Assembly (NCBI GenBank): GCA_002269645.1
Contig: NIVC01002219.1
Location: forward strand, 62,001 to 126,000
Source of the DNA: Macrostomum lignano
Lineage: Eukaryota
Direction of reading: 5' to 3'
DNA: 64,000 bases
The notes beneath the pieces were generated by a model. It did not search any database, was not told where the DNA came from, and saw only the letters and a program-made list of their open reading frames with translations. Made by a program: the position numbers and the translations under genes. Shown piece after piece: positions 4,471 to 52,699 of the stretch (the stretch's first letter is position 1; every line of letters starts with the position of its first letter).

Positions 4471-6451
4471 AACATCAAAGAAACGCCATACCAATGCTCA
4501 CTCGGGAGATGCTGAGATGCTAGTGAGTGACTTAACGATGCGAAGCTTTTAGCAGGTAAAACTTTTTCACCCAACACATTTCTTCCTTCTTTGCAGTTAA
4601 ATCCCAGAACGGAGACCAAGAAAGCTATGATAGTATACTAAATGGATGTGTGAACAATGTTTGAAGTTTTAAAGCATTTTTGTCAAAGATGAAGTAAAAA
4701 TCTTTTAAATATAAACTCTGAGTAAATAGAGGCAGCAATGTCTTTGATCTCAGGAGAAAGCTCCGAAACAAAGGAACTCAAGCAAAGAAGCCCGCCCCAG
4801 ACTTATCGACTACAATGAAGCGCATGAGAGCCAAGAAGACTTGCTATCTACGATTGGCTGCGATCCCGCCTTTCACAGACTTTCTCCCCCTGTCCCAATG
4901 GAATTGCCATCCGACAGCAGCTCATAAAAAACCCGGTTGCAACCCGGTTGCCAAATCACTGCAGAAGAATTTATAAAGTGTATCATCCTACAATTAGAAA
5001 CACAAGAAATTGAAAGTTAAAATAATCTTACTAGCTCTGCAGTGCCATGGCTGAGCAATGCTTGTCATTAAAACTTGCTTTTCTATTCGGTAAGTGACTA
5101 AAATGCAGCTCCCACATTACTCGTATTTAAGACTGCCTAAATTGAAGCTTTTTACTGCACTCTGTTCTATACTGACTTCATTGCCCAAACGCAGTTTGCT
5201 GCTCTCTCGTGCTTCGAGTACAAGGCGACAGTTCGCGGACCTATTCTGTGTGCTCAGAGCAGTTGCTTCACATGCTCAAAGCCGTTCTGAACGCCTACAA
5301 CAACTTCACGACAACAACCAAGGCCACTAATGCAATTGACTGTCTAGCAAAGTGCCAGAGGGTGAGCTGCAGCGCTGCCGTCTCGGTGGAGAGCAATGCC
5401 ACGTGCGAGATGGTCGCCATAACAACCGCCAAGCTGTCAATCTTAGCAAATCAGGTGCAGCAAGTCATCGGATCTCAGGTCGGTGCGAAGGTGTGGAAGG
5501 CGGACGACAGCGACTGGCCTCCGCCTGCAATGCAGCTTCGGAGTGAGTCATCAATGCATTGTCTCAGTGTTGAGTGGTAACCATTATTTGGCACAGACAG
5601 AAATTGCATTCACTGCAGTTTTGTAACACGCTGACGCTGCTCCATTGCAGACAGCAGCACAGGCAGAAACGGCTCAATCCAAAGCGTCCTCATCAACACG
5701 ACCGGCTGCTACCTGATCAAAGCTGCCGGCGCCAGAGGTGGCGGAAACTTACTGACGAACACATCCGGAGGCCAGGGAGCCCAGGTGAGCGCCAGAGTCA
5801 ACCTGACGGCCGGCACCCAGCTGAGCATCGTTGTGGGCCAGATGGGCGGCTCGACGTCGTTGGATATCGAAGGAGGCGGCGGAGGCGGCGGCAGCTTCGT
5901 GTACCGGACGGTCGACCGGCTGCTGCTGCTGGCTGCTGGCGGAGGCGGCGGAGCTTCCAGCATTAAAAATGGTGAGCTCAGTAGCTGCAGTTACTAGAAA
6001 TTGTAAACTATGATAAGCAAAAACCACTCGAATAAGCAGTTTGGCTGATTTCACTGCAGGACAACAGGGAGAGACTGGAATAAACGGTTCCAACAGCCTG
6101 GGTAGCCACGCCCACAACGGATTCGGCGGAACCAACGGTCAGCCGGGCTCCAACAGCCCCGCTGACACCCCAAGCAATAGCAACCATGGCGGCTGCGGCG
6201 CCGGCTGGCTCGGCAGGGCCGTCAGCCCAAGGCGGAGCTCCTCGGACGGAGAGAGAGGCGGCAGTCTGGCCGACGGCTGGGTCGGCGGCAGCGCCGGAAA
6301 CGGCAGCGTCTGCGACGGAGGCTTCGGGGGAGGCGGCGGAGGCGGCAGCAGGACCAGCTCAGTGAGAGGCGCCGCTGGAGCCGGCGGTGGCTTCAGCGGC
6401 GGCGGAGCCGGACTGGGCCACGGCCACTGCGGCGGCGGCGGTGGCTCCTTC

Positions 6452-7313
6452 TGTAGAGTGTTCTACCTCCCGTTAAAAAAGGAAAAAAGAAGATAATCGT
6501 ATAATACTACTATAAGTAAGTAAGTACACGCATGTGCGCCTAAGCTTTGAATGAATCACGCTACCAGAAAAAGATGTTACCAGAATAATACGCCATGAGC
6601 CATTTTCCCCTTTTAGCGCAACACGTGAATTGTCATGATACTATTTTGGATCAAAAACTTGTCTATAAATACAAGCGATCTGAAGCGGTACCGGAGCCAT
6701 TCTCCCCACGGAAGAGGAGCGCTCCGAAGAGGAAGCCTTAGGAGGACTTCCTGATCTACCAAGTCAATCGAGACTCGGTCGAGTTGTTGCGGTAAGCCTT
6801 CCTTATTTGCGCCCGTTGTGTTAGAGACGTCTCGCTCAAGTCTATTGAGACTTGAGTCTAATTGAGTCTGTTGAGACTCTTGAGTCTGTTTAGACTCCAT
6901 TGGTTGCAGTCTCCAGAAGGACTGCCCCTGATAGATCTTAGAGGACTATCAGTGGTTTCCGGAGCTATACCTAGAGTGCATAGAGGCACTGCTAGAAGAA
7001 GGAGGCTTAATTTAGACCGCAGTTTGGCGCAGGGTACCCATTGTTGCTACGAGGCCTCTGATTGGTCCTGACGGAAGATACCGGCCGGAAGAACTTATCG
7101 GAAGTACAAGAGGAACCAGGACCAGAGCAACTGAAGAATCAAGGCGCCTGATCTACGAGATCTACTGACAAGTTCCTAGCGAGAACTACTCAAGAAATTC
7201 AAATCCGGATTAAAGGTAATTGAATACCTTCGTTTGACTTACTGGGTTGCCTAGCTGTTGAGCTAGAAGTGATGTTCTTGATTATCGAAAGTCGGGTAAT
7301 AAGGAACACATCA
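6452..7313 (+). repeat. 5' LTR (862 bp)
   Basis: TGTAGAGTG...GGAACACATCA; direct repeat of 16191-17054; TATAAATA-like box near 6664. Confidence 0.98.
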
Positions 7314-7315
7314 AT

Positions 7316-7333
7316 TGGTGATCTCGCCCTCTC
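7316..7333 (+). promoter_or_regulatory. Putative primer-binding site (cognate tRNA not assigned)
   Basis: TGGTGATCTCGCCCTCTC starts 2 nt after the 5' LTR; TGG is complementary to the tRNA CCA end. Confidence 0.75.
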
Positions 7334-8029
7334 GGCACTACTCAAACCTTGAGCAATAGCCTGGCCAAGCTATTGTAAAGTGACGACAGAGCGACTTCAT
7401 TAATTTTGCGCGCACGTGTTAGAGTTAACACTTTTTAAGTCCGTTACGTTTTGAAACTCGAGTAAAATTTGGTGTACAGGTTTGAGCACCTGTCAAATTT
7501 GAGTACAGTTTGAGCACGCGTGTTAAAATTTTGTTTTGACGAGCTCGAGCAAGTGTGAGTTTAAAACAAAACCGAAATTAACTTCGTCGGTACACTGAAA
7601 ACAAACCAAAAATAAAAAGAATCGTCGACGCAAAACAAACAAAAAATAACTGAAACATTTTGCCGGCACAAAAACTAAAACAAAACCGAAATTAATTGAA
7701 ACTTCGTGGAGAGCAGAGTTAATTGACAAAAGAGAGAGAGTCAAAGAAGAGAAGAAAGACTTTGCAAAGCAAGAAGACAAGTCCACTTCAACTTGAAGAT
7801 ACACTTTGCGGGACGCCGCATAAGTGCGAAATCAGCAAGCGAACAGAACAAGTTCATTTGAGGACAACCAGTGGCAGCAAGCCACACCGCATCCGAGGCC
7901 AGCGAATAACAAATCGACACCACAAGGCAATTCGTTACAGTCGAGGTTTATTCCGAGGCAAACACCACACTGGACGATCCGTTACAAATCGATCCAGATC
8001 TTGAACTACCGTTCTACCCTATCAACAAC

Positions 8030-11029
8030 ATGGCGCGGCGCAATCCAACGGTACACAGAGACATCAAAGAAACGGTCGGTACTTTCTCGATGGAGAAAGA
8101 TTTTAACACATTTGTCGACCATTTTGACCTGGTATGTAGGGAATACAACCTACAAAATCCAGAGAAGGCACAGCTGCTGCCACCTCTTCTCCAAGGTACT
8201 GCGCGAGAAATTTACGGCAAGCTGGATGCGGCAACACAGCAAAATTATCCAGCACTAATCATTCAACTGCGCGCGCATTTCAACCGTTGCGGCACAAACA
8301 GATCAGTGCTGCTGCACAAGTTGCATAACAGAAGGATGCAAGCAACAGAATCCTTCCTCGCCTTTGTGGACGATATCCGCCAGATAATTAAGGCACTGCA
8401 TCAGCCACCGCTGCAAGCTGCGGACCAACCACCACTGGGAGCGGCAGAATTGGCCGCCAGAGAAAGACAACGATTGATGGATCGTGAACAAAACCTCATC
8501 CTGCACGTAATAAACAACGCACAGCCGTCACTTCGGGATAGACTTTTGCGTGAAAATATCGAAACCGAAGAAGACCTTTTGCGTTGCGGAATGCAATGGG
8601 AAGCCAGTGCCCCATTAATGACGACAGGCAACAATGAAGTGCAGAAACTGACGCAGCAACTAAACAAGTTAATGCAGCACCAGACAGCTGCTATCGCCGA
8701 ACAAAAAAGACGAAATGAACAAGCCTCAGCCAGATGTTACTACTGCGGACAAGAAGGACATTATCAGATTAATTGTCCTCATTGGTCAACAAGATACGAC
8801 AAGCCGCGACAGATATTCAACAATCAGAAGCCGCAGAAACCATGGCAGCAATATCAAAATCGCCAACAACAAGGCATAAGACGCTTCGGAAATGATAGAC
8901 GCTTCGGAAATAATGACCGCTCCGGAAATGATGGCCGCTTCGGAAACGAAGGCCGCTTCAGAAGTAATGGCTACAGGCCACGCAACGTCAGATACACACA
9001 AAGACAGCCGACGCAAGCAATGCCACGATACGCGAATGCCATCACGTACACACCGGAAAATGAACAGCAAGAACAGCAAGTGTTCACAATTGACGACTTG
9101 GAAATGGACTTCACAGTCCCGGAACTTGACATCAGCTTGATCGAAAAGAAGACGACGCACGAGGACAACACTGACAACACGAAAGAGACGAATGAAACCG
9201 AAATGATCAAATTAAAAGAGACCACCGGAGACAGCAGAGAAAACAGGAAGAAAGTAAATCACAAGACAAGGGAGGAGGCGGAGAGCGACATCGGCAACGA
9301 AGAAAAGATGAAAACCGGCGAAGAAAACAACTATGAATCGACAACAGTGGATGACGACAAAACGAGCATGAAAGACAAAGAAATGAAAGAAGAAGAAGAA
9401 TGTAGAAGTTACGGCAACGACCACGACTGCGAGGTGCGTGATGACACGAACGACTACCAAGCCGAAAGAGGAATGCAGGAAGAACCGAGAGCGGAGAATC
9501 TAAGTTCCGACAGCGATCAAGGCTACGAAATACAATGGAAAGATGAAGAAATGGAAAAAGAACAGGTGAAAGAAAAGCCGAGTTCCGACAGCGACGAATG
9601 CTACGAGATCCGATACAAACGAAATGGTGAAGCCTATATTCAAACGGTCGACTACAAGACAGAGAAAAGATACCAAACGCAATGGAGTGAAACAACGGAA
9701 ACATCGGAAGAAGCCGCAGACGAAGATAATGAAATAACCAAAAAGCAAAGCGAATCAGAAGCCTTCCGCCTGGATCAGCCAATGGAACAACCGAAAGAAT
9801 ATGATGCGGACATGGAAGATAACGAATGGCGATCGCAGCCAATGCCAGCAAGGACAACGGCAAAATCCAAGAAGTGGAAAAACTGGCTATTCTGGATCAT
9901 CGTGATACTACTGATAGCAGTAGTCGCCAAAGCAACGGCAACGGAAAAGCCAATGATTTGTCCAACGGATGCGCATATCCAACCGATGATCTACAAGATA
10001 CCAACCGACATCAAATGCAGTTACTTCAAGACAAACCAGACAAAACCAAAGAAGATTACACTCGATCTCTACAAGGCTAACATCAAGAAGCATCGACAAC
10101 ACGGGATAGTATGCTTCAGAGACAAGCACCTGGTGGAAAAAGTTTGGCGCGGACAATGGAACCGGATCCGATTTAAACAACATGAGCTACATGTGTCGCA
10201 CGCGGAATGCCTACAATGGAATCAAACACTATTTTCAAAGGATGGTGAACTGGAACCAGATGAGAAGGTCGGCAACGCACAGCTGTTCAGAACAAAGAAT
10301 TCAGCCAACGGTCGATATATTCACTTCTTCGGAAAATGGAAAGAATATATGGCACGCAACAGCTACTTGATCAGAAATATTCCATTCTACTACAATCCGT
10401 ACGAGAAAATGGAATCGTTACAGCTGCAACTAAGCGAATGTCGATACAGTGAAGGATGGTGTCCAACGCCGATTCTACGGAAGGAAGAACTACACAGTCT
10501 ACCACTGAGTCCAACATATCATCAAGACTATCGATGGCAGATTGAGCACAGAGCACAATCACACTATGAGGAACCGTACAAATCACGACAATATTTCTTC
10601 GCATGGAAAGTAGAGCCGGAAATTGACTGCAAGCTTCAAAAGTATCACAAAGTGGAAGGAGGACTACTGTCGAATACGTTTTTGGCAAAAGCAGGAGACT
10701 TGGCCTTGACGTTTCAAAAGAAGCCGGTTGAACAGGAACTCAAATGCAAGGATACGGACAAGACGCTATTCATCTCGGAGCAAGAAATACCAGTCTACGT
10801 GAAGGATGGTGACAAACAAACCTTCCTGGCAATCATAAACGGAACATATCAGCAACAAGAGAGACAACGACGCGACATAGAACGTCCACGATTGGTGTCA
10901 AACCGACTGCTGTCAGCAAAGATCACGGCGCTGGATCACAACCTGCATAACCAGCTTAACCACTTACATCGGTCACTGGTTCAGCTGACTTGCAAAATGC
11001 ACGCAATCAACTTGAACTACGCAAGTTAG
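8030..11029 (+). CDS. gag: Gag fused in frame to an internal signal peptide and the N-terminal part of an Env-like ectodomain
   Basis: Capsid-like N-terminus; CX2CX4HX4C knuckle CYYCGQEGHYQINC (8735-8776); acidic spacer; hydrophobic WLFWIIVILLIAVVAKA (about 9884-9933); Cys-containing ectodomain with N-x-T sequons and furin site RQRR (10862-10873). Confidence 0.9.
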   Translation: MARRNPTVHRDIKETVGTFSMEKDFNTFVDHFDLVCREYNLQNPEKAQLLPPLLQGTAREIYGKLDAATQQNYPALIIQLRAHFNRCGTNRSVLLHKLHNRRMQATESFLAFVDDIRQIIKALHQPPLQAADQPPLGAAELAARERQRLMDREQNLILHVINNAQPSLRDRLLRENIETEEDLLRCGMQWEASAPLMTTGNNEVQKLTQQLNKLMQHQTAAIAEQKRRNEQASARCYYCGQEGHYQINCPHWSTRYDKPRQIFNNQKPQKPWQQYQNRQQQGIRRFGNDRRFGNNDRSGNDGRFGNEGRFRSNGYRPRNVRYTQRQPTQAMPRYANAITYTPENEQQEQQVFTIDDLEMDFTVPELDISLIEKKTTHEDNTDNTKETNETEMIKLKETTGDSRENRKKVNHKTREEAESDIGNEEKMKTGEENNYESTTVDDDKTSMKDKEMKEEEECRSYGNDHDCEVRDDTNDYQAERGMQEEPRAENLSSDSDQGYEIQWKDEEMEKEQVKEKPSSDSDECYEIRYKRNGEAYIQTVDYKTEKRYQTQWSETTETSEEAADEDNEITKKQSESEAFRLDQPMEQPKEYDADMEDNEWRSQPMPARTTAKSKKWKNWLFWIIVILLIAVVAKATATEKPMICPTDAHIQPMIYKIPTDIKCSYFKTNQTKPKKITLDLYKANIKKHRQHGIVCFRDKHLVEKVWRGQWNRIRFKQHELHVSHAECLQWNQTLFSKDGELEPDEKVGNAQLFRTKNSANGRYIHFFGKWKEYMARNSYLIRNIPFYYNPYEKMESLQLQLSECRYSEGWCPTPILRKEELHSLPLSPTYHQDYRWQIEHRAQSHYEEPYKSRQYFFAWKVEPEIDCKLQKYHKVEGGLLSNTFLAKAGDLALTFQKKPVEQELKCKDTDKTLFISEQEIPVYVKDGDKQTFLAIINGTYQQQERQRRDIERPRLVSNRLLSAKITALDHNLHNQLNHLHRSLVQLTCKMHAINLNYAS

Positions 11030-11776
11030 AACTACTATGTCAACCCTACGATGACATTTCGCAAGAACACGGGAATGAGAGAAGTTCTAGCAATTCCGAT
11101 ATATGGACATCTCCTGATATACAAGTGCACGCCGATACAGCACTTCAACATCTTACCGTCGAACACTCCAACAACTTGCTACGACAAGCCGAGAATTGAA
11201 GCATTCTACGAAGGCAAAAGGATACAAGGATTCTTGGACACGGTACACAACATCATCGTTGGAACCGCAATACCAAGAACTTGCACCACTGCAGCAAACT
11301 ACTATCAACTGGACGATGCACTACATGTCATTAAAACGACAGGAACAACGGCAAACATCACAGAACCAGAGGTGATTGTCGATGAAACGTACGACATGGA
11401 GGATTTGAAGATACGATTCAACAGAACGAAGTACACACCATTCGCCGATATCCAACTCGATGAGATAACGCCAGGATGGACCATCAACGACTTCTTACAA
11501 GCGTTCATCACTCAACGAAAGATGATTCGTCAACTCTTCACACGAAAGAATAAAGGAACGGGAACACGCAATTTCCCAGTCCTTGTATCGATGGACAACG
11601 CCATCCAATCGTTTTGGACAAACAGCTTCTTGGAACTGCTTAACGGAAGAGGCAGCCTATATCAAGGCTTCATCTTCTACAGCGCCTGCGTTGTTTGGAT
11701 AGTCACGGCGATCTTTATCATCTCGTCGATAGTACGATGCTTCAGCAACACTTGTCCACAGCGAAACGAACAGTGA
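11030..11776 (+). CDS. env: C-terminal part of the Env-like glycoprotein (same frame as gag, after one TAG), with transmembrane helix
   Basis: In-frame continuation NYYVNPTMTFRKNTGMREVLAIPIYGHLLIYKCTPI; sequons NIT and NRT; TM GFIFYSACVVWIVTAIFIISSIV (about 11666-11734); short tail ending TGA at 11774-11776. Confidence 0.8.
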   Translation, partial: NYYVNPTMTFRKNTGMREVLAIPIYGHLLIYKCTPIQHFNILPSNTPTTCYDKPRIEAFYEGKRIQGFLDTVHNIIVGTAIPRTCTTAANYYQLDDALHVIKTTGTTANITEPEVIVDETYDMEDLKIRFNRTKYTPFADIQLDEITPGWTINDFLQAFITQRKMIRQLFTRKNKGTGTRNFPVLVSMDNAIQSFWTNSFLELLNGRGSLYQGFIFYSACVVWIVTAIFIISSIVRCFSNTCPQRNEQ

Positions 11777-14700
11777 ACGCCATCATGCAGAAGATACCAA
11801 GGAAGAAGACAACAACTTGGAATTGACAGAGGATGCACGTCAAGAAACTCAAGGACAGCCGACACCATCAACGCGAATGTATCCATCGATTCCGACAACA
11901 CCAACAGCACCGAGAATTCAGCCACCTACTTATCAGCCTGAACAACACGAGCCAAAATGGCCGGAAAACTACGTCTGTACGCTACACGCCGAGATTGGCA
12001 AAGCAATGGCTCAGGTCATTGTCAACAACTTGCCATGTCGAGCACTACTGGATTCAGGCAGCTCGATCACAGTCATCTCGCAACAATTATGCAACAAGCT
12101 ACGACTCGCGGTACGACCAGCAGCAATCGCAGTTGCAGGAGCAGGAGGACATTCACTCAACATCCTAGGAAAAGCAGATATCGACTTGAAAATTGCTAAT
12201 AAACAGCTGACGGTCCCGACGTACATCATCGACAGACTACCAAACCAAGACGTCATCGTTGGAATCGACACGTTCAAGCAGCTTCAACTACCATTGACCT
12301 TCGACTTCAACAAGCAAACGTTTAGGATCGACACGGTGGAGCAACCGCTGATCAACCAGATTCGAGTACTACCGAAAGTAACTCTGCAGCAAGATGTCAT
12401 TATCCAGCCTGAAAGCGCATGCTGGGTCAGAGCGAAAACGACCAGCGCGGCAGATGAAGCAATGATATTTGATCCACACAGGAGAGTCACGGCAAAACAT
12501 CAAATCATGATGCCTACGGCACTAGTGCTGGTTGCAAAGGATAAGCAACTGCCAGTACAAATCTTCAACCCGAACACAGAAACGGTTCATCTACGACAAG
12601 GAATGTGCATCGGTCATCTCAACACCCAAGCATCGGTTATGCTGATTGAACAAGCGACTCCACGACTAACAGAGGAAGAATTTCAAAAGAAGATCAATTT
12701 GGATGACAGCCCGATTACGGAACAGCAAAAGAGGAAAGTTCGACAGCTGTTGTGGAAGTACAACGAAGCCTTCTGCCATCATGATTACGACATCGGACGA
12801 GCCAAGGACATCAAACAGGAAATCAAACTTCTGCCGCACACGGAACCAATTCAGTGCAAGCCGTACCCGATCGCCAAGCATCTGCAACAACACTTTGACG
12901 AAATCATCGATAAAATGCTAAAGCACGGCATCATCAGCAAAGCTATTTCGGCTTACTCCTCACCGTGCCTACTGGTACAGAAGAAGGAGACAAACGAAAG
13001 ACGACTCGTATGCGACTTCAGACTGTTGAACAAGTACATACCGACGGATCAGCAAAGCCTACCGAAGATCTCCGAACTACTAGCAAAGCTCAACACGGCA
13101 AAATTGTTCACGGTGTTCGACCTACGTCATGGATTTTGGCAAATTGAAATCGAGAAAGAGTCACGACAGTACACGGCTTTCAAAACCTACAATGGACAAG
13201 TATACGAGTACAATCGATCGCCGATGGGACTTAGCAACAGCCCAGCAACGATGAGTCGACTAACAGCATACATGCTAGCAGGATGCACGAACCTGCTGCA
13301 CTATGTCGACGACATTTTAGCCTACGGAGAGGATTTCGAGCGACTCTACGAAGCTACGGAGAAGGCCCTAGCGCTCATTCAACGCCAAGGTCTGAAGCTA
13401 CAACCAACTAAATGCAAATTCTTCCGAGACAACGTGCGTTACCTGGGACATCAGGTGACAGCCAAAGGAATCTCACCGGACCCAGACAACGTGGAAAAGG
13501 TGAAGAAGTTTCCTACGCCAACCAGTATAACGAAGGTCCAATCATTCCTTGGACTTGCGCAATACTTCAGGAAGTTCTTACCTAACTTCGCAAAGACAGC
13601 AAAGCCACTGTACGACCTGCTCAAGTTCGACAAATGGAAGCAAGACAACTGGACACAGAGACAACAGGAAAGTTTCGACGAAATCAAACGACAGCTGACA
13701 TCAGACGCACTGCTACAGCATCCGGACTTCGACAAGCCCTTCATCATCGAGACAGACGCCTCAGGAACGGGACTCGGAGCAGTCCTACTACAGGAAACCG
13801 AGGACAAGAAGGAACGACCTATTGCTTACGTCAGTCGAGCACTCAAACCAAATGAGACAAAGTGGTCAGCTACGGAACGAGAGCTACTAGGAGTCTTGTT
13901 CGCCCTGCGACAGTTTCATTACTACATCTATGGTTCTCCAATACAGACGATAGTACGCACGGATCATGCACCATTGACCTACGTCGTAACTACAAAAGGA
14001 CAGACCAACAACCGACTCATCAGGATGACACTCAAGATCCAGGATTACAACTACAAACTCGTCTACAAACCAGGAATTACCAACAAAGCCGCGGACGCCC
14101 TGTCAAGAGCCTATGAAGTCAACGCCATTCATCCAATCCCTAACATCAAGGAGTTGGTGGATGAAACCGAGCGCGACAACTTCTACCAAGCGGTTAAAGA
14201 CGACGACAAGAACATCAAACTCAGTCCCATGGAACGAAAATTCCTACGCAAGCAACGACAACACCTAACAATCAATAAGTCACGGCTCTACTGGATGAGC
14301 GACAATAAACCCAAGATCTACGTACCATATTCGTTTCGGCAAGCAATTCTCAACGAGCTGCACGACAACCCACTCGCTGGACACCTGTCGGCCGCAAAGA
14401 CCATCGCGAGAGTGGAACAATACTACTTTTGGCCAACTATGTACGGCGACATCAAGCAGTATTGCAACAACTGCCATTCATGTGCTGCATCAAAGACAGG
14501 ACGACGACAGAAACCGCAGCTACAGTCCATTCCGAAGTCGACTACAATGGACTGTCTAAGCATCGACATCACCGGACCACTGCCACCGAGCTGTCTCCAG
14601 GGCATCGCCTACACCTACATTCTAACCGCCTTGGATATCTTCTCGAAGTTTGCTATCGCCATACCGATACCGGACATCACAGCTCAGACAGTGGCAATGA

Positions 14701-15515
14701 GTTTCTTCAACGAAATCATTTGCAAGTACGGCACGCCGAAGAACCTCACATCGGACAACGGATCGCAGTTTACATCGCAACTGTTTCAGCAAGTCGTAAG
14801 GATTCTCAACATTACGCAGATCTACACATCGACCTACAATCCGAAGGCAAACATGGTTGAACGGTTTCACCGCAACCTGCACGAGATGATTACACATTTC
14901 GCGCACCAACAGCCGGAAGACTGGATCATCTACCTGCAATCTGTAACAATGGCCTACAACAGCGCTATTCATCGATCAACGGACAATACGCCATTCTTCC
15001 TAATGTTTGGACGAGACTTCCAACCGCCGAATCTGCTCGCACAGCAATTGCTACCATCGCAGTACGTGGAAGTACCGACTTCCATTCAGAAATTCGTCAC
15101 GCAACTACACCTCGCATGGAAGATCGCCAAGCACAACATTGACAACCAGGTGGCTCTGACCACCGGCAACGACGCGAGATCGACAACCCTGACGGCCGGC
15201 GACATCGTCTACCTACACTACCCGCCACAGCAGACGCATAAACATGCACAGAAGTACAAAGGACCCTATCGAGTGGTCCAACTAACGTCACCAACAACGG
15301 CACGCCTGGCTAATGTACAAGATCCACATCAGCACCAGTTCTACGTACACATTCATCGACTAAAGAAGATCAACACTGACACAGCGACGTTTCTACCGAC
15401 ATTAGACAACGCTGATCGCACGCGTTCAACGAACCGCCACATCGCGACGAAGCACGAGGAGACTCAAACGACAGATGTGAGCCAGCCACATGGCTACAAC
15501 CTACGACCACGCTAG
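11733..15515 (+). CDS. pol: Pol polyprotein: late-domain leader, aspartic protease, RT, RNase H, integrase
   Basis: LLDSGS (PR), YVDD (RT), ETDAS and ADALSR (RH), HHCC zinc finger, D-D-E core and GPY motif (IN), C-terminal YNLR. The frame is open from 11733 (first ATG at 11877), is +1 relative to gag-env, and has no internal stop. Confidence 0.97.
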   Translation, partial: YDASATLVHSETNSERHHAEDTKEEDNNLELTEDARQETQGQPTPSTRMYPSIPTTPTAPRIQPPTYQPEQHEPKWPENYVCTLHAEIGKAMAQVIVNNLPCRALLDSGSSITVISQQLCNKLRLAVRPAAIAVAGAGGHSLNILGKADIDLKIANKQLTVPTYIIDRLPNQDVIVGIDTFKQLQLPLTFDFNKQTFRIDTVEQPLINQIRVLPKVTLQQDVIIQPESACWVRAKTTSAADEAMIFDPHRRVTAKHQIMMPTALVLVAKDKQLPVQIFNPNTETVHLRQGMCIGHLNTQASVMLIEQATPRLTEEEFQKKINLDDSPITEQQKRKVRQLLWKYNEAFCHHDYDIGRAKDIKQEIKLLPHTEPIQCKPYPIAKHLQQHFDEIIDKMLKHGIISKAISAYSSPCLLVQKKETNERRLVCDFRLLNKYIPTDQQSLPKISELLAKLNTAKLFTVFDLRHGFWQIEIEKESRQYTAFKTYNGQVYEYNRSPMGLSNSPATMSRLTAYMLAGCTNLLHYVDDILAYGEDFERLYEATEKALALIQRQGLKLQPTKCKFFRDNVRYLGHQVTAKGISPDPDNVEKVKKFPTPTSITKVQSFLGLAQYFRKFLPNFAKTAKPLYDLLKFDKWKQDNWTQRQQESFDEIKRQLTSDALLQHPDFDKPFIIETDASGTGLGAVLLQETEDKKERPIAYVSRALKPNETKWSATERELLGVLFALRQFHYYIYGSPIQTIVRTDHAPLTYVVTTKGQTNNRLIRMTLKIQDYNYKLVYKPGITNKAADALSRAYEVNAIHPIPNIKELVDETERDNFYQAVKDDDKNIKLSPMERKFLRKQRQHLTINKSRLYWMSDNKPKIYVPYSFRQAILNELHDNPLAGHLSAAKTIARVEQYYFWPTMYGDIKQYCNNCHSCAASKTGRRQKPQLQSIPKSTTMDCLSIDITGPLPPSCLQGIAYTYILTALDIFSKFAIAIPIPDITAQTVAMSFFNEIICKYGTPKNLTSDNGSQFTSQLFQQVVRILNITQIYTSTYNPKANMVERFHRNLHEMITHFAHQQPEDWIIYLQSVTMAYNSAIHRSTDNTPFFLMFGRDFQPPNLLAQQLLPSQYVEVPTSIQKFVTQLHLAWKIAKHNIDNQVALTTGNDARSTTLTAGDIVYLHYPPQQTHKHAQKYKGPYRVVQLTSPTTARLANVQDPHQHQFYVHIHRLKKINTDTATFLPTLDNADRTRSTNRHIATKHEETQTTDVSQPHGYNLRPR

Positions 15516-15635
15516 AGTTTAGAGAACAACCCCGTGTAGTGACCGGGATAAAGAATAGCACTACAGCTTCGCAAGCTTGTCGTAAAAGGCGACTAATCCG
15601 AGCGACACAAAGACAGCGACAAATTGACGACAATT

Positions 15636-15977
15636 ATGGGCAACGCACTGTCAAAACAGGCGCCCCAGCCTCAGCAGCTATATGACTGCCCGATATGTTT
15701 AACTGATGACTTGGCTGTCAAGCCACCGACTATTTGCATCAATGGACATAAAGTTTGCGGACAATGTTTAAGTGATTCACACTATATTCAGCCATGGCAG
15801 AATTGTCCCCTCTGTAGAGATAGTTTGCGACAATGTGCCTATTGTTATTCTTGGCGCACGTTTCAATATTGTAACCACCAACATTTTATTTGCATGCACT
15901 GTTTGAAGCAAACCGCTAGTAGGGGCGTTATAGGATGCCCCTTATGTAATAGTATGCCGCGAGACTGCACGTTTTGA
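15636..15977 (+). CDS. 113-aa accessory protein: N-myristoylation motif + two tandem C3HC4-type RING fingers
   Basis: ATG in strong context (ATTATGG); MGNALSK has G2/S6/K7. RING1 is C-x2-C-x12-C-x3-H-x2-C-x2-C-x12-C-x2-C and RING2 is C-x2-C-x8-C-x3-H-x2-C-x2-C-x11-C-x2-C. Lies between the pol stop and the PPT. Confidence 0.85.
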   Translation: MGNALSKQAPQPQQLYDCPICLTDDLAVKPPTICINGHKVCGQCLSDSHYIQPWQNCPLCRDSLRQCAYCYSWRTFQYCNHQHFICMHCLKQTASRGVIGCPLCNSMPRDCTF

Positions 15978-16175
15978 AAGTGGTGTCGGATCAAACCTGA
16001 TGCCACTTGATGTCTACGCGATATTCGAGTTTTGACCGCAATATGTACTGAAAAGTTTTTAGAGTTTTGACCAAACCCTCGCTTCACTAGACGCGCACAA
16101 AATCAATTGTTTATTTCCTATATTAACTGATCACCACAGAATTTTATTGTTAAAACTCGGGACGAGTTTTTTCGT

Positions 16176-16187
16176 AAAAAAGGGAGA
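16176..16187 (+). promoter_or_regulatory. Polypurine tract
   Basis: AAAAAAGGGAGA, 3 nt upstream of the 3' LTR. Confidence 0.85.
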
Positions 16188-16190
16188 TTT

Positions 16191-17054
16191 TGTAGAGTGT
16201 TCTACCTCCCGTTAAAAAAGGAAAAAAGAAGATAATCGTATAATACTACTATAAGTAAGTAAGTACACGCATGTGCGCCTAAGCTTTGAATGAATCACGC
16301 TACCAGAAAAAGATGTTACCAGAATAATACGCCATGAGCCATTTTCCCCTTTTAGCGCAACACGTGAATTGTCATGATACTATTTTGGATCAAAAACTTG
16401 TCTATAAATACAAGCGATCTGAAGCGGTACCGGAGCCATTCTCCCCACGGAAGAGGAGCGCTCCGAAGAGGAAGCCTTAGGAGGACTTCCTGATCTACCA
16501 AGTCAATCGAGACTCGGTCGAGTTGTTGCGGTAAGCCTTCCTTATTTGCGCCCGTTGTGTTAGAGACGTCTCGCTCAAGTCTATTGAGACTTGAGTCTAA
16601 TTGAGTCTGTTGAGACTCTTGAGTCTGTTTAGACTCCATTGGTTGCAGTCTCCAGAAGGACTGCCCCTGATAGATCTTAGAGGACTATCAGTGGTTTCCG
16701 GAGCTATACCTAGAGTGCATAGAGGCACTGCTAGAAGAAGGAGGCTTAATTTAGACCGCAGTTTGGCGCAGGGTACCCATTGTTGCTACGAGGCCTCTGA
16801 TTGGTCCTGACGGAAGATACCGGCCGGAAGAACTTATCGGAAGTACAAGAGGAACCAGGACCAGAGCAACTGAAGAATCAAGGCGCCTGATCTACGAGAT
16901 CTACTGACAAGTTCCTAGCGAGAACTACTCAAGAAATTCAAATCCGGATTAAAGGTAATTGAATACCTTCGTTTGACTTACTGGGTTGCCTAGCTGCTGA
17001 GCTAGAAGTGAGTGTTCTTTGATTACCAAAAGGCGGGTAATAAGGAACACATCA
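16191..17054 (+). repeat. 3' LTR (864 bp)
   Basis: Identical by eye to the 5' LTR except 4 substitutions and 2 single-base insertions in the last ~60 bp. Confidence 0.98.
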
Positions 17055-21550: not shown

Positions 21551-22903
21551 ATCTGAATCTAACGGTCAGCTGTGAAGTCAACTATTGCTATCACTTTGTG
21601 GTCATCGTAGCACTCAGTAATACTCGTATTTGGTTTTCTTACTATGAGGTACTTCTGGCTAGCTTTTCTGAGAACTGCTAACACAAGCTGAAAAAATGTA
21701 AATGTGGGATTGACGTGGTTAGGTTGAAGATAATATCGGGATGAAGTATGCGAAAGTTAGAAAAGCTGCTGGCAACTGCAGATGGCTTTGAATTGTGAGC
21801 GGCACAAGGGGCTTTCTAAGGGCGGGCTTGAGTGCAGGAAAAGAAATACAAAAGGCGGGCACAGACAAGACGCGTGAGTGAGATCCCGAGTGAATTTCAT
21901 AGGCTTTCCTATTCTAAAAAAGTACTGGGGAAAGATGACACGCCTGTCACCAAATCCAAAGGCGGAACGATACAGCGAAAAGAATTCATGAGGATAAGAA
22001 AGAATTGATGTGCATCAGACACACAGGAGCTGGTAATTCATGCAGCTGCGTCGAAGAAAATGTGCATCGATGCGTTTCTTTTAGCTCTTAACTGTTTTCC
22101 CAAAATTTCATGTCTCAACTCTAGAATTCTATCTTTATCCAGAATTTTGTGAAAAACTCGTCCTTACTTTTAAATTCGCTTTGTTATAAAGTCAAAGACC
22201 TCTTATCTGCGTATGTTTTAAACGCATTGGTCTTAATTTACTAAGATATTTTATCTAAGATATTTTATCTTCAAATCATTTTACTTCTTTAATATCCTTG
22301 TTATAGTCAATAGTTTCTGTGCTTCTTTAGAGCACCCTATTCCTCCTTGTCTTGTCCTTGTACAATGGTCCTTGGGTAAAAGCGAAATGACACAGCGAAA
22401 CAAATTCGAGGAGACAAGAGGGCAATTCATGTGTAGCAGTTATTGAAAATAATATTTATTCAACGCTTTTTCACTAAATTTCCCCCCTCTTCTCAGTAGA
22501 ATTAGCAGGAGTCAAAAATGAAATGAGTAAAACTTGTTTTTCCCTTTTACGTTTGCAATTTGTTATAAAGTGAAGGACCTCTTTGTCTGCAGGTAGAAAA
22601 TTTATTTGAAGGTTAAATATCGTTTCAATTGTTTTGCAATAGAAATTTTTGCAGATAATTAATCTTTTTAGGAATTTAATTGTCACTTCTTGGCAAAAAA
22701 GGAAACTTGGGAAGATTATGAACTTTATTAATATGCTCCGTTTTGTTAAACTTGTTTTTAAGCTCTTCGATGTTAATTATAAAAACAAAATGCATATTTT
22801 AGTCGAATATTTTAACCTATAACGTCTTTATTATATTACTAATTAGTTTCTTTTTCCTTTTTGTCGTTTTGGGTCGTCGTGAGACAACAGTTGTACACCA
22901 TAG

Positions 22904-23400
22904 GACAACCGGGAGAGAGTGGGATAAACGGTTCCGACAGCCTGGGTGGCCACACCCTCTTCACGCGATTCGGCGGCACCAACGGTCAGCCGGGCTCTAA
23001 CAGCCCCGCTAGCACCCCAAGCCATAGCAACCACGGCGGCTGCGGCGCCGGCTGGCTCGGCAGGGCCGTCAGCCCCAGACGGAGCTCCTCGGACGGAGAG
23101 AGAGGCGGCAGTCTAGCCGACGGCTGGGTCGGCGGCAGCGCCGGAAATGGCAGCGTCTGCAACGGAGGCTTCGGGGGAGGCGGCGGAGGCGGCAGCAGGA
23201 CCAGCTCAGTGAGAGGCACCGCGGGAGGCGGCGGCGGCTTCAGCGGTGGCGGAGCCGGACTGGGCTTCGGTCACATCGGCGGCGGCGGCTCCTTCTGCAG
23301 GGACGGCTGCGTGTTCGGCGGCACCTGGACCGGCGACCAGGGCTTCGTGTCGGTCCTGCTGGAGTCGGCCTCAGCCGCGTGTGACTCATCAGACACCTGA
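22904..23400 (+). pseudogene. Orphan last exon of the PAN/Gly-rich family (copy B)
   Basis: Open Gly-rich exon with acceptor CATAG|GA and TGA at 23398-23400. Exons 1-3 are absent upstream. Confidence 0.8.
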
Positions 23401-29716: not shown

Positions 29717-31219
29717 ATGTCTGAGCAATGCTTGTCATTAAAACTTGCTTTTCTATTCGGTAAGTGACTAGAATGCAGCTCCCACAATACTCGTATTTAA
29801 GACTGCCTAGATTAATCCTTTTGATTGCACTCTGTTTTATACTGACTTCATTGCCCAAACGCAGTTTGCTGCTCTCTCGTGCTTCGAGTACAAGGTGCCA
29901 GTTCGCGGACCTATTCTGTGTGCTCAGAGCAGCAGCTTCACATGCTGGAAGCCGTTCTGAACGCCTACAACAACGTCACGACAACAACTAAGGCCACTAC
30001 TGCAATCGACTGTCTAGCAAAGTGTCAGAGGGTGAGCTGCAGCGCTGCCGTCTCTGTGGAGAGCAATGCCATGTGCGAGATGGTCACCATAACAACCGCC
30101 AAGCGGTCAATCTCAGCAAATCAGGTGCAGCGAGTCATCGGATCTCAGGTCGGTGCGAAGGTGTGGAAGGCGGACGACAGCGACTGGCCTTCGCCTGCAG
30201 TGCAGCTTCGGAGTGAGTCATCAATGCATTGTTGTGGATTGGCTAGCAAAGACCGAAATTGCACTCACTCCAGTTTTGTAACTCGCTGACGCTGTTCCAT
30301 TGCAGACAGCAGCACAGGTAGAAACGGCTCAATCCAAAGCGTCCTCATCAACACGACCGGCTGCTACCTGATCAAAGCTGCCGGTGCCAGAGGTGGCGAC
30401 AACTTACTGAACAACACATCCGGAGGCCAGGGAGCCCAGGTGAGCGCCAGAGTCAACCTGACAGCCGGCACCCAGCTGAGCATCGTTGTGGGCCAGATGG
30501 GCGGCTCGACCTCCTTGGAATTTGAAGGACGCGGCGGAGGCGGCGGCAGCTTCGTGTACCGGACGGGCGACCGGCTGCTGCTGCTGGCTGCCGGTGGAGG
30601 CGGTGGAGCTTCCTGGAATAGAAATGGTGAGCTGAGTGGCTGCAGTTGCTTATATTGTAAATTATGAGAATGCACGACCATTTGGATCAGCAGCTTGATT
30701 GATTTCCCCGCAGGAAAACCGGGAGAGACTGGGATAAGCGGTTCCGACAGCCGTGGGAACTTATTTCAAAATACGGGATTCGGCGGCACCAACGGTCAGC
30801 CGGGCTACAACAACCCCGCTAGCACCCCAAGCGATAACAACCACGGCGGCTGTGGCGCCGGCTGGCTCGGCAGGGCCGTCAGCCCCAGACGGAGCTCCTC
30901 GGACGGAGAGAGAGGCGGCAGTCTGGCCGACGGCTGGGTCGGCGGCAGCGCCGGAAACGGCAGCGTCGGCGATGGAGGCTTCGGCGGAGGTGGCGGAGGC
31001 GGCGGAGGCGGCAGCAGGACCAGCTCACTGAGAGGCACCTCTGGAGCTGGCGGAGGCTTCAGCGGTGGCGGAGCCGGACTGAGCTTCGGCCATATCGGCG
31101 GTGGCGGCGGCTCCTTCTGCAGGGGCGGCTGCGTGTTCGGCGGCACCTGGACCGGCGACCAGGGCTTCGTGTCCGTCTTGCTGGAGTCAGCCTCAGCCGC
31201 CTGCGACTCAGCCACCTGA
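29717..31219 (+). CDS. Secreted PAN + ALK/LTK-like glycine-rich protein, copy C, intact, 405 aa
   Basis: Exons 29717-29759, 29865-30212, 30306-30626, 30714-31219 join to an open 1218-nt frame. Signal MSEQCLSLKLAFLFVCCSLVLRVQG, PAN-like DCLAKCQRVSC..C, then GCYLIKAAGARGG / VVGQMG / LLAAGGGGG / GGFGGGG / GGGFSGG motifs. No TM segment. Confidence 0.9.
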
Positions 31220-33926: not shown

Positions 33927-35779
33927 ATGGTGAATCAAGTTTTTCTGTTGAAACTTCTTTTCGGTAAGTTACCCCGACTGCAACCGCGTCATCTTGATGT
34001 CTTCTAACTGATAGAATGAAGCTTAGGACCAGAGGCGTAACGCTTGCTTGTTTCTATTCAATCAACTCTAAATAAACCACGAATCTCTAATCTCTAGCAA
34101 GCGTCAATTCATAAGGAGCGGCCCATAAAAACAGTAGCTAGCAACAAGCACACTCTGCTTCCCGCCTTCGAGCAAGCATACAAATGATTTGAGGACAGGT
34201 AAAGTAGCTGTCTCTCAAGTTGTTTGTACAATAAACATCGCAGGAGATTCGATGCTGACAATTAAGCTAACGCTGCTAGCATGACAGATATTTTTGTCTT
34301 TGCAATTACGTTTCATAATTAGTAAAGGACTTTAATCCTGACTTAAATACGTACCGCTGCTCACATTTATTTAATGCATGATATTTATTACGGACTGCGC
34401 ACTGCCCAACGCAGTTTGCTGCTCTCTCGTGCTTCGAGTACAAGGCGACAGTTCGCGGACCTATTCTGTGTGCTCAGAGCAGCAGCTTCACATGCTGGAA
34501 GCCGTTCTGAACGCCTACAACAACGTCACGACTACAACCAAGGCTATTAATGTAATCGACTGTCTAGCAAAGTGCCAGAGGGTGAACTGCAGCGCTGCCG
34601 TCTCTGTGGAGAGCAATGCCACGTGCGAGATTGTCGTCGCCATAACAACCACCAAGCTGTCAATCTCAGCAGATCAGGTGCAGCAAGTCATCGGATCTCA
34701 GGTCGGTGCGAAGGTGTGGAAAGCGGACGACAGCGACTGGCCTTCGCCTGCAGTGCAGCTTCTGAGTGAGTCATCAATGCCTAGTCTTAGTTGTGGGTTG
34801 TGGACATGATTTTGGCCCACAAATTGCACTCACTCCAGTTTTGTAACTCGCTGACGCTGCTCCGTTGCAGACAGCAGCACAGGTAGAAACGGCTCAATCC
34901 AAAGCGTCCTCATCAACACGACCGGCTGCTACCTGATCAAAGCTGCCGGCGCCAGAGGTGGAGGAAACTTACTGACGAACAAAGCCGGAGGCCAGGGAGC
35001 CCAGGTGAGCACCAGAGTCAACCTGACAGCCGGCACCCAGCTGAGCATCGTTGTGGGTCAGATGGGCGGCTCGACGTCGTTGGATATCGAAGGAGGCGGC
35101 GGAGGCGGCGGCAGCTTCGTGTACCGGACGGTCGACCGGCTGCTGCTGCTGGCTGCCGGTGGAGGCGGCGGAGCTTCCAGCTTTAAAAATGGTGAGCTCA
35201 GTAGCTGCAGTTGCTAGAAATTGTAAAATATGATAAGCAAAAAGCACTCGGATAAGCAGTTTGGCTGATTTCACTGCAGGAAAACCAGGAGAGACTGGGA
35301 TAAACGGTTCCGACAGCCTGGGTGGCTACGCCCCCTTCACGGGATTCGGCGGCACCAACGGTCAGCCGGGCTACAACAATCCCGCTGACACCCCAAGCGA
35401 TAGCAACCACGGCGGCTGCGGCGCCGGCTGGCTCGGCAGGGCCGTCAGCCCCAGACGGAGCTCCTCGGACGGAGAGAGAGGCGGCAGTCTGGCCGACGGC
35501 TGGGTCGGCGGCAGCGCCGGAGACGGCAGCGTCTGCGACGGAGGCTTCGGAGGAGGCGGCGGAGGCGGCGGAGGCGGCAGCAGGACCAGCTCAGTAAGAG
35601 GCGCCCCTGGAGCTGGCGGAGGCTTCAGCGGTGGCGGAGCCGGACTGGGCTACGGCCACATCGGCGGCGGCGGTGGCTCCTTCTGCAGGGGCGGCTGTGT
35701 GTTCGGCGGCACCTGGACCGGCGACCAGGGCTTCGTGTCCGTGCTTCTGGAGTCGGCCGCCTGCGACTCGGGCACCTGA
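33927..35779 (+). CDS. Secreted PAN + ALK/LTK-like glycine-rich protein, copy D, intact, 402 aa
   Basis: Exons 33927-33963, 34415-34765, 34871-35191, 35280-35779 give a 1209-nt open frame. Exon 1 and intron 1 are diverged (MVNQVFLLKLLF). Confidence 0.87.
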
Positions 35780-46504: not shown

Positions 46505-49500
46505 TCACAGAGGTGAGCTCCTGTGCTGCGGATGCTTGGCACTGCCAGATCCGCCGTCCTGCAGGTCAAGGAACTCGGACATCAGCGGCGGCACAAACCT
46601 CGGATTGGACATTGTGGCCAAGTCGGAAAAGTCTTTCTCGAGGCCGCGCAGCTCCGCTAGCTGGGTGAGCAGCTGGGGATAGACTTTGCGAGCGTGGGAC
46701 ACGGTGAACCGCGTGCGCAACAGGCGTTCGAGCAGCATGCAGTACTTCACCTGCGACTCTTCCACCTGGAGGGCAACATGGGCGATTGGAGGTTGGTGAG
46801 TTCGGTGAGATCAAAAGAGATTCAGGGGGTATTGATGTGTCAGTGAGATCAAAAGAGATTCAGGGGGTATTGATGTGTCAGTGAGATCAAAGAGATTCAG
46901 GGGGTATTGATGTGTCAGTGAGATCAAAGAGATTCAGGGGGTATTGATGTGTCAGTGAGATCAAAGAGATTCAGGGGGTATTGATGTGTCGGTGATATCA
47001 AAGAGATTCAATGGTATTGATGTGTCAGTGAGATCAAAGAGATTCAATGGGTATTGATGTGTCAGTGAGATCAAAGAGATTCAGGGGGTATTGGTGTGTC
47101 GGTGAGATCAAAGAGATTGAGGGGGTATTGATGTGTCGGTGAGATCAAAGAGATTCAGGGGTAACTATGTGACGGTAAGATCAAAGAGATTCAGATGATA
47201 ATGTGTCGGTGAGATCAAAGAGATTTAGGGGGTATTGATGTGTCGGTGAGATCAAAGAGATTCAGATGATAATGTGTCGGTGATTTCAAAGAGATTCAGA
47301 CGATAATGTGTCGGTGATATCAAAGGATCTGATTTAAATTGTAAAATTGTTCAGAAGCCGTACAATTGAAAAATATTCAAGCAGAAGCTGCACGTATGCA
47401 AGAAGTGCAATCGTATAATTATTCAACATCAAATTTCCTGAGACAGGCTGCAGCAAGTTCATGCACAAAGCCAGCTGCTCTTGAAAAAACAGCTATACCC
47501 AGCTCTCAGCTTACAGGGGAGTTTGCGATTCCACCAGAAAAAAGAACCGAACAAAGGAAAAGCAGAAATCCCCGTGAGAAAAGCTAGACAACCCTGCAGC
47601 TGTTTCCTGCATCCCGACTGCAAAACAGAGTTGAAGCAAACTCAACTGCCTGCCTGCATTGTGAATTGCTCTTCAAAAATGTTGACATCACATTTCCTAC
47701 TGTATTTTAGCCCGTTATATGGTAGATCGCTTGAAATTGGAATTCCTAGAATGCCGCTTCAGAGAAAATTCCGGGAACGATATCAGAAGAAACCAATTAG
47801 AAAGACGCCAAATAGACATTTTTTAGAACGGCGCCAAATCGAATTTTTTAAGAATATCACCAAATGGATATTTCTTAGAATGGCACCAAAAGCAAATTTT
47901 TTAGAACGGCGCCAAATCGAAATTTTTAAGAATATCACTAAATGGATATTTCTTAGAATGGCGCTAAAAGGATATTTCTAAGAATGGCGCCCAATAAACA
48001 TTTTTTTAAATATCACCTACTAATGTCTATTAGATAAATAGAAATATCTAAGAATGGCGCCAAATAGACATTTCTTAGAATGGCACTTAAGGACATTTCT
48101 TAGAACGGCGCCAAATCGAAATTTTTAAGAATATCACCAAATGGAAATTTCTTAGAATGGCGCAAAACAGACATTTCTAAAAACAGGCATATGGCGCAAA
48201 ACAGACATATCTAAGAATGGCGCCAAATAGACATTTCTTAGAATGACACCTGAGGACATTTCTTAGAACGGCGCCAAATGGAAATTTCTTAAATGGCGCC
48301 AAATAGACATTTCTTAGAATGGCGCCAAAAGCACATTTCTCAAAATGGTACCTAAAGGACATTTCTGAGAATAGCGCCAAATTGACATTTGTAAGAATGA
48401 CTCCAAATAGACATTTCGTAGAATGGCGCCAAATAGACATTTCAAAAAGAAGTGGCACAAAACATTCATTTCTTAGAATCGCCCTGATTAGCAAGTTCTC
48501 GGAAGTGGAGGAAAAAAAGATTCAGAATGGCACTAGGCAAGCATTTTTTTAAAAAAGGACCGACAATAAAAAAATTATCCCTCAGCCGGAACAGGCACTC
48601 ACCAGATCCCTTCCCTCAGGCGACAACCCGGCCCGGTCTGGGCTGAACAGGCAGCAGGCAAGCAGCAGTACCAGAGTGTGATGATCGCACTGCAGGTTGC
48701 TGCGCAGAGTCCTGGCTAACTGAAAAAACGCATGCCCAGCATTGGGCCCGGCCGCTCTCAGGAAATCCTGGCCCTGCATAGAGTCCGACTCGGCACTGGC
48801 CGTGTCCGTCTCGTCAAGGAATCTGGCATGGTCCGGATCGAAGCTGATGACGCCGCGCAGTAGGATGAGCTCGAGGGCGCCGCCCTTCAACAGGCAGACT
48901 TTGTCCGGCTGGCTGAGCTGCCGGAACTCGTCCAGCTTCTTGCTCAGATCGATCACCCGCATCACGGACAGCTCGGCAAAGTTGATCAGGTCGTCCACGT
49001 TGGCCGCACGCTGGCCGTGGCGTTCGGCGACTCGAACCTCGGCCGACTGGCGATAGTACTCGGCCAACTGGGTCAGCTCTTGGACGTCCGATTCGGACAT
49101 GATCTCGCGGTCGGCCAGCTCTGATGGCGTGAGCTCCTTCGGCAGCAGGCCCAGAGTCTCCAGAGTGCGCAGCAGCCTGCGGTTTAGGGGGAGTGACTGA
49201 TTGAGACCAGAGTTACTGGGTGAGTGACCGGAGTGACTAAATTGAGACCAGAGTGACTGGGTGAGTGAGCGGAGTGACCAAATTGAGACCAGAGTGACTT
49301 GGTGAGTGAGTGGAGTGACCGATTGAGACCAGAGTGACTGGATGAGTGAGCGGAGTGACCAGTTCAGACAAGAGTGACTGGGTGAGTGAATGGAGTGACC
49401 AGTTAAGACCAGTGACTGGGTGAGTGAGCGGAGTGACTAAATTGAGACCAGAGTGACTGGGCGAGTGACCGATTGAGACCAGAATGACTATGTGAGTGAC

Positions 49501-52500: not shown

Positions 52501-52662
52501 GCCTGCTGCCTCTGCTGTTGCTGCTGATTGTAGAGATCCATGTCTTCTAGGGGAACTATCTTTTTTTCTATGTTGTTTGATTGTTGCAAGTCCAAACCCG
52601 TGGCATTGGCTGATGGTTGAAAATCAGGCACTGATTGCGGGTGACCGCTTTTGCTGTCCGGT
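46505..52662 (-). CDS. HR96: Nuclear receptor of the HR96/NR1J (DAF-12/VDR-related) group; true start may lie upstream
   Basis: Exons (minus) 52662-52257, 51572-51246, 50223-50057, 49176-48603, 46765-46505, with consistent phases 0/0/2/0. DBD CGVCGDKALGFNFDAVSCESCKAFFRRNA|..CPYEGNCRIDISNRRFCKRCRLRKCFDVGM has the ESCKA P-box. LBD FRQLSQPDKVCLLKGG; AF-2 PLMSEFLDL. 537 aa from ATG 52541. Confidence 0.9.
46800..47330. repeat. Intronic ~37-38-bp minisatellite (GTGAGATCAAAGAGATTCAGGGGGTATTGATGTGTC)
   Basis: Read directly. Confidence 0.95.
47740..48530. repeat. Intronic degenerate ~26-bp repeat (ATTTCTTAGAATGGCGCCAAATAGAC)
   Basis: Read directly. Confidence 0.9.
49190..49790. repeat. Intronic ~36-40-bp minisatellite (GGAGTGACCAGTTGAGACCAGAGTGACT...)
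   Basis: Read directly. Confidence 0.95.
50350..51200. repeat. Intronic 26-bp minisatellite (CAGATAGAATGGTAGATAGAGATTGG)
   Basis: Read directly. Confidence 0.97.
51592..52256. repeat. Intronic 34/35-bp minisatellite (TGAATTATCACACACTGAATGACCGGAAGTACAG) occupying almost the whole intron
   Basis: Read directly; it abuts the minus-strand donor at 52256. Confidence 0.97.
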
Positions 52663-52699
52663 CTGAAAGCAAGTCAGGATTTTTCATGGGACAGTCACA

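Follow-up and report, generated by a model that had tools for sequence, protein, structure and literature searches.

A private frame break in one copy of a Gag-Env-Pol retroelement of Macrostomum lignano, and likely late-domain motifs behind its envelope anchor

The offset between the env and pol reading frames of the full LTR retrotransposon found at 6452-17054 (+) of the window, by which we mean the whole 64,000-nucleotide stretch of Macrostomum lignano DNA analysed here, is a break private to this copy, due to mutation or assembly error, and not a mechanism of expression. The reading to which we give a reasonably good probability as a whole joins this private break in one Gag-Env-Pol copy with a role for the PTAP and YPxI motifs behind the Env anchor, which are likely late domains recruiting TSG101 and ALIX for budding. 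A broader proposal, which we rate as plausible and somewhat short of probable, is that Gag-Env-Pol errantiviruses would bud by means of late domains placed on the cytosolic tail of Env and not in Gag, with a protease-excised, p6-like peptide that would link scission to the release of Pol and the activation of Env. The motifs bear on whether and how Ty3/gypsy elements with an env leave the cell outside insects, and the proposal, if true, would amount to a route of exit driven by the Env tail in an invertebrate retroelement.

The element is an apparently young Gag-Env-Pol member of the Ty3/gypsy group with a gB-like envelope, and LTRs, primer site, target-site duplication and many similar copies are all present. 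The 5' LTR (6452..7313 (+), 862 nt, TG...CA) is directly preceded and the 3' LTR (16191..17054 (+), 864 nt) directly followed by the 4-nt target-site duplication CTTC. Both LTRs are identical over 806 nt (6452-7257 in the 5' LTR) and diverge in their last ~55 nt; the identity means either that the insertion is young or that the LTRs were collapsed in the assembly, and the differing ends (7258-7313 and 16997-17054) suggest subfamily recombination or a mosaic assembly. The primer-binding site lies at 7316..7327 (+), and no tRNA gene was found in the window. Gag (8030..9886 (+)) comprises a region that is capsid-like by its position, a CCHC knuckle (8735-8776, Pfam), the protease-site-like sequence ANAI (9032-9043) and a long acidic spacer. 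Pol (11973..15515 (+), its start being set at the putative VCTL cleavage site) encodes aspartic protease (LLDSG, 12045-12059), RT (YVDD, 13302-13313), RNase H and integrase, which Pfam places after the CCHC knuckle in the Ty3/gypsy order PR-RT-RNase H-IN, and env is inserted between gag and pol. The Env ectodomain (9947..11668 (+)) carries a furin-type RQRR site (10862-10873) and is enclosed by two strongly hydrophobic segments, the only ones in the chain (peaks above 1.6, on hydropathy only), an arrangement also found in relatives: a signal-peptide-like segment at 9887..9943 (+), with basic residues on the Gag side and a hydropathy of 2.4 when measured in an in-frame copy, and a predicted transmembrane anchor at 11669..11722 (+).

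By its predicted fold the Env ectodomain is a class III fusogen of the HSV gB type. A profile built from 52 relatives matches herpesvirus gB (E 1.5e-20), and the alignment-based model (pLDDT 79.5, pTM 0.57), used because folding from the single sequence was useless (pLDDT 30), finds gB structures in Foldseek with E 1.9e-22 and a TM-score of about 0.4. The Pfam family Monjiviricetes_fusion also matches, at E 8e-6, which is below the cut-off of that family. The ectodomain reaches 805-869 aa in families C and D (L055, L057, L060, L061) against about 575 in the window element, and the Env of family D has a second furin-type site.

Comparison of copies settled the reading frame. The earlier note had located YPSI (11880..11891 (+)), PTAP (11901..11912 (+)) and PPTY (11922..11933 (+)) within 18 residues, in a pol frame that is open from 11733, stands in +1 to the env frame and overlaps it by 44 nt, and all of this is borne out for the window copy, where the env frame runs to 11776 and the pol frame to 15515. 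Its further claim, that the +1 offset is a property of the element, is contradicted by the other copies. A DNA search returned 76 candidates and 40 scored matches, and 30 sequences were compared, namely the window copy and 29 other copies. The window copy lacks a single base at each of two places, near 11755 and near 11800 (in the break region 11750..11805 (+)), relative to all 29, and its junction occurs in none of them. Anchor, linker and protease lie in one frame in 23 of the 29, and because env and pol thus share a frame in the sister copies, pol needs no non-standard decoding, contrary to the supposed requirement for a frameshift or a splice. Examining the env-pol frame in other copies was a test named in the earlier note, and its result is that the offset is a lesion and that relatives encode a single polyprotein. 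Another single-base gap, near 11806, is common to the remaining six copies and places pol out of frame with env; the carriers (L011-L016) are spread over five contigs, and the gap may be an inherited lesion or a repeated assembly error. Nor do gag and env form one open frame in the window copy, as had been stated, since an in-frame stop at 11027-11029, overlooked earlier, interrupts the ectodomain; this stop is unique to the window copy (1/30).

The unbroken state is found elsewhere in the genome. Four of 20 longer copies keep a Gag-Env-Pol frame of 2,461-2,538 aa and in the other 16 it is interrupted, for the most part at scattered positions; frames of at least 2,450 aa hold 16 of 137 env matches, across several divergent families. 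A deposited protein (P0001, labelled Macrostomum lignano), 99% identical over the compared part, reads through the junction and carries env, transmembrane segment, linker and pol in one chain. Read contigs from four public runs (three studies, one from a second organism) contained neither the window junction nor the window stop, and the low contig depth at the junction is explained by the most diverged subfamily not being represented there. Given these results, a +1 frameshift programmed to occur behind the Env anchor, which would open the motifs and pol to translation, is scarcely credible and was rejected. The window copy does have the +1 pol frame and the overlap that such a mechanism would use, and it alone has them; the six other offset copies differ from it in carrying a different gap and being shifted in the opposite direction. 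The window junction is missing from all other copies and read contigs, and the window env is stopped upstream in any case. The sequence TVNAIMQ, which is invariant in 12 haplotypes and includes the conserved, protease-site-like VNAI (11773-11784 (+), within the break region), lies in the third frame of the window, neither that of env nor that of pol, and a single +1 shift could therefore not read it. None of five known +1 shift signals occurs in the overlap of the window copy. There is no -1 slippery heptamer either, which also speaks against a -1 shift in the six offset copies, a possibility that was likewise rejected. Single-base breaks in this assembly can thus mimic recoding sites.

The position past the Env anchor that had been assigned to the motifs stands in part: they do lie behind the anchor, in frame with it in most sister copies, and the cytosolic side is predicted, on hydropathy only, from the two hydrophobic segments and from basic residues that flank them on the sides expected. 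A polyprotein chain of this kind would cross the membrane twice, and the two crossings would leave Gag as well as the tail with Pol in the cytosol and the ectodomain in the lumen.

The conservation of the motifs was examined in related elements, for which 40 loci were hand-picked across the divergent env matches; 33 yielded a pre-protease peptide (one of them out of frame) and seven yielded none. The peptides were grouped by hand into 10 linker types, the family of the window element included, with type B1 represented by a copy bearing PTAP (present in two of the three B1 copies, the other having PNAP). P[ST]AP was found in 8 of the 10 families against 0.29 expected from shuffles, and YPx[IL] in 7 of 10 against 0.41, whereas PPxY was found in 1 of 10 against 0.54, that is, at chance level. 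At least one motif is present in 9 of the 10 linker families of this genome; lineage E has none, two linker types are missing YPx[IL] alone and one is missing P[ST]AP alone. The late-domain reading of the earlier note is strengthened in the case of P[ST]AP and YPx[IL], both retained in deeply separated lineages, and in the case of PPxY only inside the family of the window element, to which this motif is limited; it was rejected as a conserved feature beyond that family. A YPAL sequence in Gag, also considered as a candidate, was rejected as not common to other families.

These families are related by descent, so the family counts are not independent trials and were collapsed into four lineages, with env halves that share 21-31% identity, on a tree of nine rows (type H, being too short, was left out). 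At this level P[ST]AP and YPx[IL] are each present in three of four lineages (P = 8e-4 and 2e-3, respectively). Linker identity is 20-55% among related families and only 20-33% between lineages, and the order of the motifs flips between families A and B. Composition-keeping shuffles of the linker of the window element's family never produced all three motifs together (0/300,000), and an unbiased search for four-letter patterns, with S/T and I/L merged, ranked PSAP (8) and IYP.I (7) at the top, the maximum in 300 shuffles being 5. As an env-less control, 50 other protease loci were grouped into 15 families, 12 of which had enough upstream frame; none of these 12 carried any motif (Fisher P = 1e-4 and 7e-4), nor did any of them have a membrane segment above 1.6. 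The link of the motifs to families with an env, and their absence where env is lacking, is indirect evidence that these elements make enveloped particles.

A library search for more distant relatives gave 56 matches, in 13 of which a motif scan placed anchor and protease in one chain, and Pfam found env together with RT in several further ones. Three library relatives are labelled as nematode proteins and most bear no label for the host, and env and protease in one chain extend to library relatives of which some are so labelled. For the analysis of distant tails, matches most likely to come from the same genus were left out; of the 34 tails taken up, 32 had sufficient length, and the anchor call was weak in six. 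A motif occurs in 8 of the 32 against 2.0 expected (P about 5e-4) and in none of the other 24, compared with 9 of 10 families in M. lignano. Word-based protein searches returned only 1, 0 and 2 matches and are weak evidence. Within the family of the window element, the ten fixed motif positions show six silent changes and one replacement across 12 haplotypes, as against 34 silent changes and 38 replacements in the rest of the linker, and the difference is not significant (Fisher P = 0.11). The variable position of PPxY is G, I, N or T, with P, P and Y invariant, and the only loss of PTAP in the family is in a copy with many breaks.

Late-domain peptides of retroviruses, such as HIV-1 p6, the p12 and MA motifs of MLV and EIAV p9, offer the obvious comparison. 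As in them, P[ST]AP, YPx[IL] and PPxY are clustered in a disordered peptide ahead of the protease that is apparently flanked by protease sites; unlike them, the motif module of the window element is not in Gag and follows the Env anchor within a Gag-Env-Pol chain. Three stretches of the 2,538-aa chain match [VIA]N[AST][IVL] and look like protease sites: one follows the knuckle, one stands about 20 residues behind the anchor and one separates RNase H from integrase. A looser pattern for such sites, picked after seeing the data, is matched by 5 of 10 tails, where 1.2 would be expected. In the mechanism that we propose, the tail motifs of a membrane-tethered Gag-Env-Pol precursor would bring ESCRT to the bud neck, and the protease of the element would then cut at VNAI, about 20 residues past the anchor, and near VCTL ahead of the protease. 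HIV p6 and the R peptide of MLV are the models for peptide excision and for trimming of the Env tail; by analogy, the two cuts would release a peptide of ~65 residues resembling p6 and would shorten the Env tail as removal of the R peptide does. Judged from its sequence, the motif peptide has likely, though putative, roles in binding TSG101 and ALIX, in cleavage and in budding. A search for expression found no RNA data set listed as containing the element.

The host encodes the partners that these motifs would need in the form of V domains of the ALIX type and a TSG101 UEV domain, which matches the human one with 141.5 bits and E 3.7e-44. In this UEV domain (L092:1366-2103), His and Val stand in place of human Y63 and F142, which we take to be residues of the PTAP pocket, and these two differences count against the proposed recruitment. 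A search for the PSAP of host HRS, meant to show whether the UEV pocket is in use, gave a sole match, in a 20-aa off-frame stretch.

Other explanations of the motifs were weighed against budding. They might bind ESCRT and ubiquitin factors for the sorting of Env to endosomes, multivesicular bodies or turnover, and not for virion scission, a role that would suit motifs standing in the cytosolic tail of a membrane protein instead of in Gag and missing from three quarters of the distant tails (24/32); to our knowledge, moreover, no particle of the window element has been reported. We nevertheless regard sorting as unlikely, given that Gag in these families is nearly free of the motifs (outside the linker, the 10 chains, about 18,000 residues, contain one P[ST]AP and three YPx[IL]), that the polyprotein ties the tail to Gag and Pol at assembly and that PTAP combined with YPx[IL] is what retroviral Gag usually employs in budding. 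Quite improbable in our view is a splice that removes env and fuses Gag with the motif peptide and Pol in the manner of retroviruses, which could coexist with the polyprotein and would ease its 1:1:1 ratio of Gag to Env to Pol. Pol can be reached without it, and the two joints detected in the range 10900-12300, which does not include gag, lack GT..AG ends and come from DNA-type runs only. That the motifs arose by chance, or persist as neutral remnants of a linker with many prolines, is more doubtful still. The linkers are indeed rich in proline, PPxY does not exceed chance and the within-family test of selection is not significant, but the composition-keeping shuffles, the ranking of all four-letter patterns and the control without env each contradict this explanation, and so do the change of motif order between families A and B and the low identity of linkers between lineages. 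Budding through PTAP and YPxI remains our preferred reading.

With respect to the literature, GAG-ENV-POL elements with a gB-type Env have been described in Nematoda, Bryozoa and Platyhelminthes in PMC13524379, which treats their ancestry and Env folds; these HSV/gB-type errantiviruses share gene order and the class III envelope with the window element. Its Supplementary file 1 lists Platyhelminthes_Rhabditophora_Mlig_errantivirus_2, whose published primer site (the same 12-mer), LTR length and spacing are those of the window element, the difference being that the window copy is broken. Four env peptides of the window element were absent from the portions of seven PMC13524379 supplement files that were available, the rows of which may hold gaps or omit Mlig_errantivirus_2. 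The window element most likely belongs to this published family, so that its gene order, and probably the family as well, has already been published. The main text of PMC13524379 makes no mention of late domain, ESCRT, single ORF, polyprotein or frameshift, and the available parts of PMC4604429 and bioRxiv 10.1101/2024.12.18.629116 hold nothing on the window element. The closest working analogue is NS3 of bluetongue virus, a membrane protein with PSAP and PPRY that recruits TSG101 and NEDD4 for egress (PMC7409164); it differs in being non-structural, a protein on its own in an RNA virus that has no envelope, and not the tail of a polyprotein fusogen. YPXL/I is named as an ALIX ligand in the title of a work cited in PMC3346829. 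Our search of the literature on late domains in gypsy elements and retrotransposons or in envelope tails found retrovirus and arenavirus work only. The conserved, env-linked pair of P[ST]AP and YPx[IL] in the tail of Env is real, and our searches, which covered papers other than Sacco et al. 2022 (PMID 35550022), met no published description of it; that work may already describe the single frame or the motifs.

Several further features of the element and of its surroundings were recorded. An accessory ORF of 113 aa between pol and the 3' LTR (15636..15977 (+)) encodes a RING finger and starts with MGxxxS, presumably a myristoylation-like signal, and may be a ubiquitin ligase or matrix-like helper. 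Family B has two longer RING ORFs without the MGxxxS start (L051, L052, L053, L088), and families D, F and G have unrelated ORFs of 250-340 aa at the same position. A conserved domain of ~90 aa without a Pfam name lies between protease and RT (about 12370-12620 of the window) and is present in all families examined (L055, L057, L060, L066, L068). Each LTR contains an antisense ORF of 95 aa (6613-6900 and 16352-16639 (-)). A glycine-rich host exon occurs in four copies (approximately 5598-6496, 22843-23400, 30253-31219 and 34818-35779), and the element is inserted in the first of them, the reading frame of which continues into the LTR. Farther along the window, at 48582-52673 (-), are exons with a zinc-finger CGVCGDKALGFNF stretch and a ligand-binding-like stretch, which we take to resemble a nuclear receptor.
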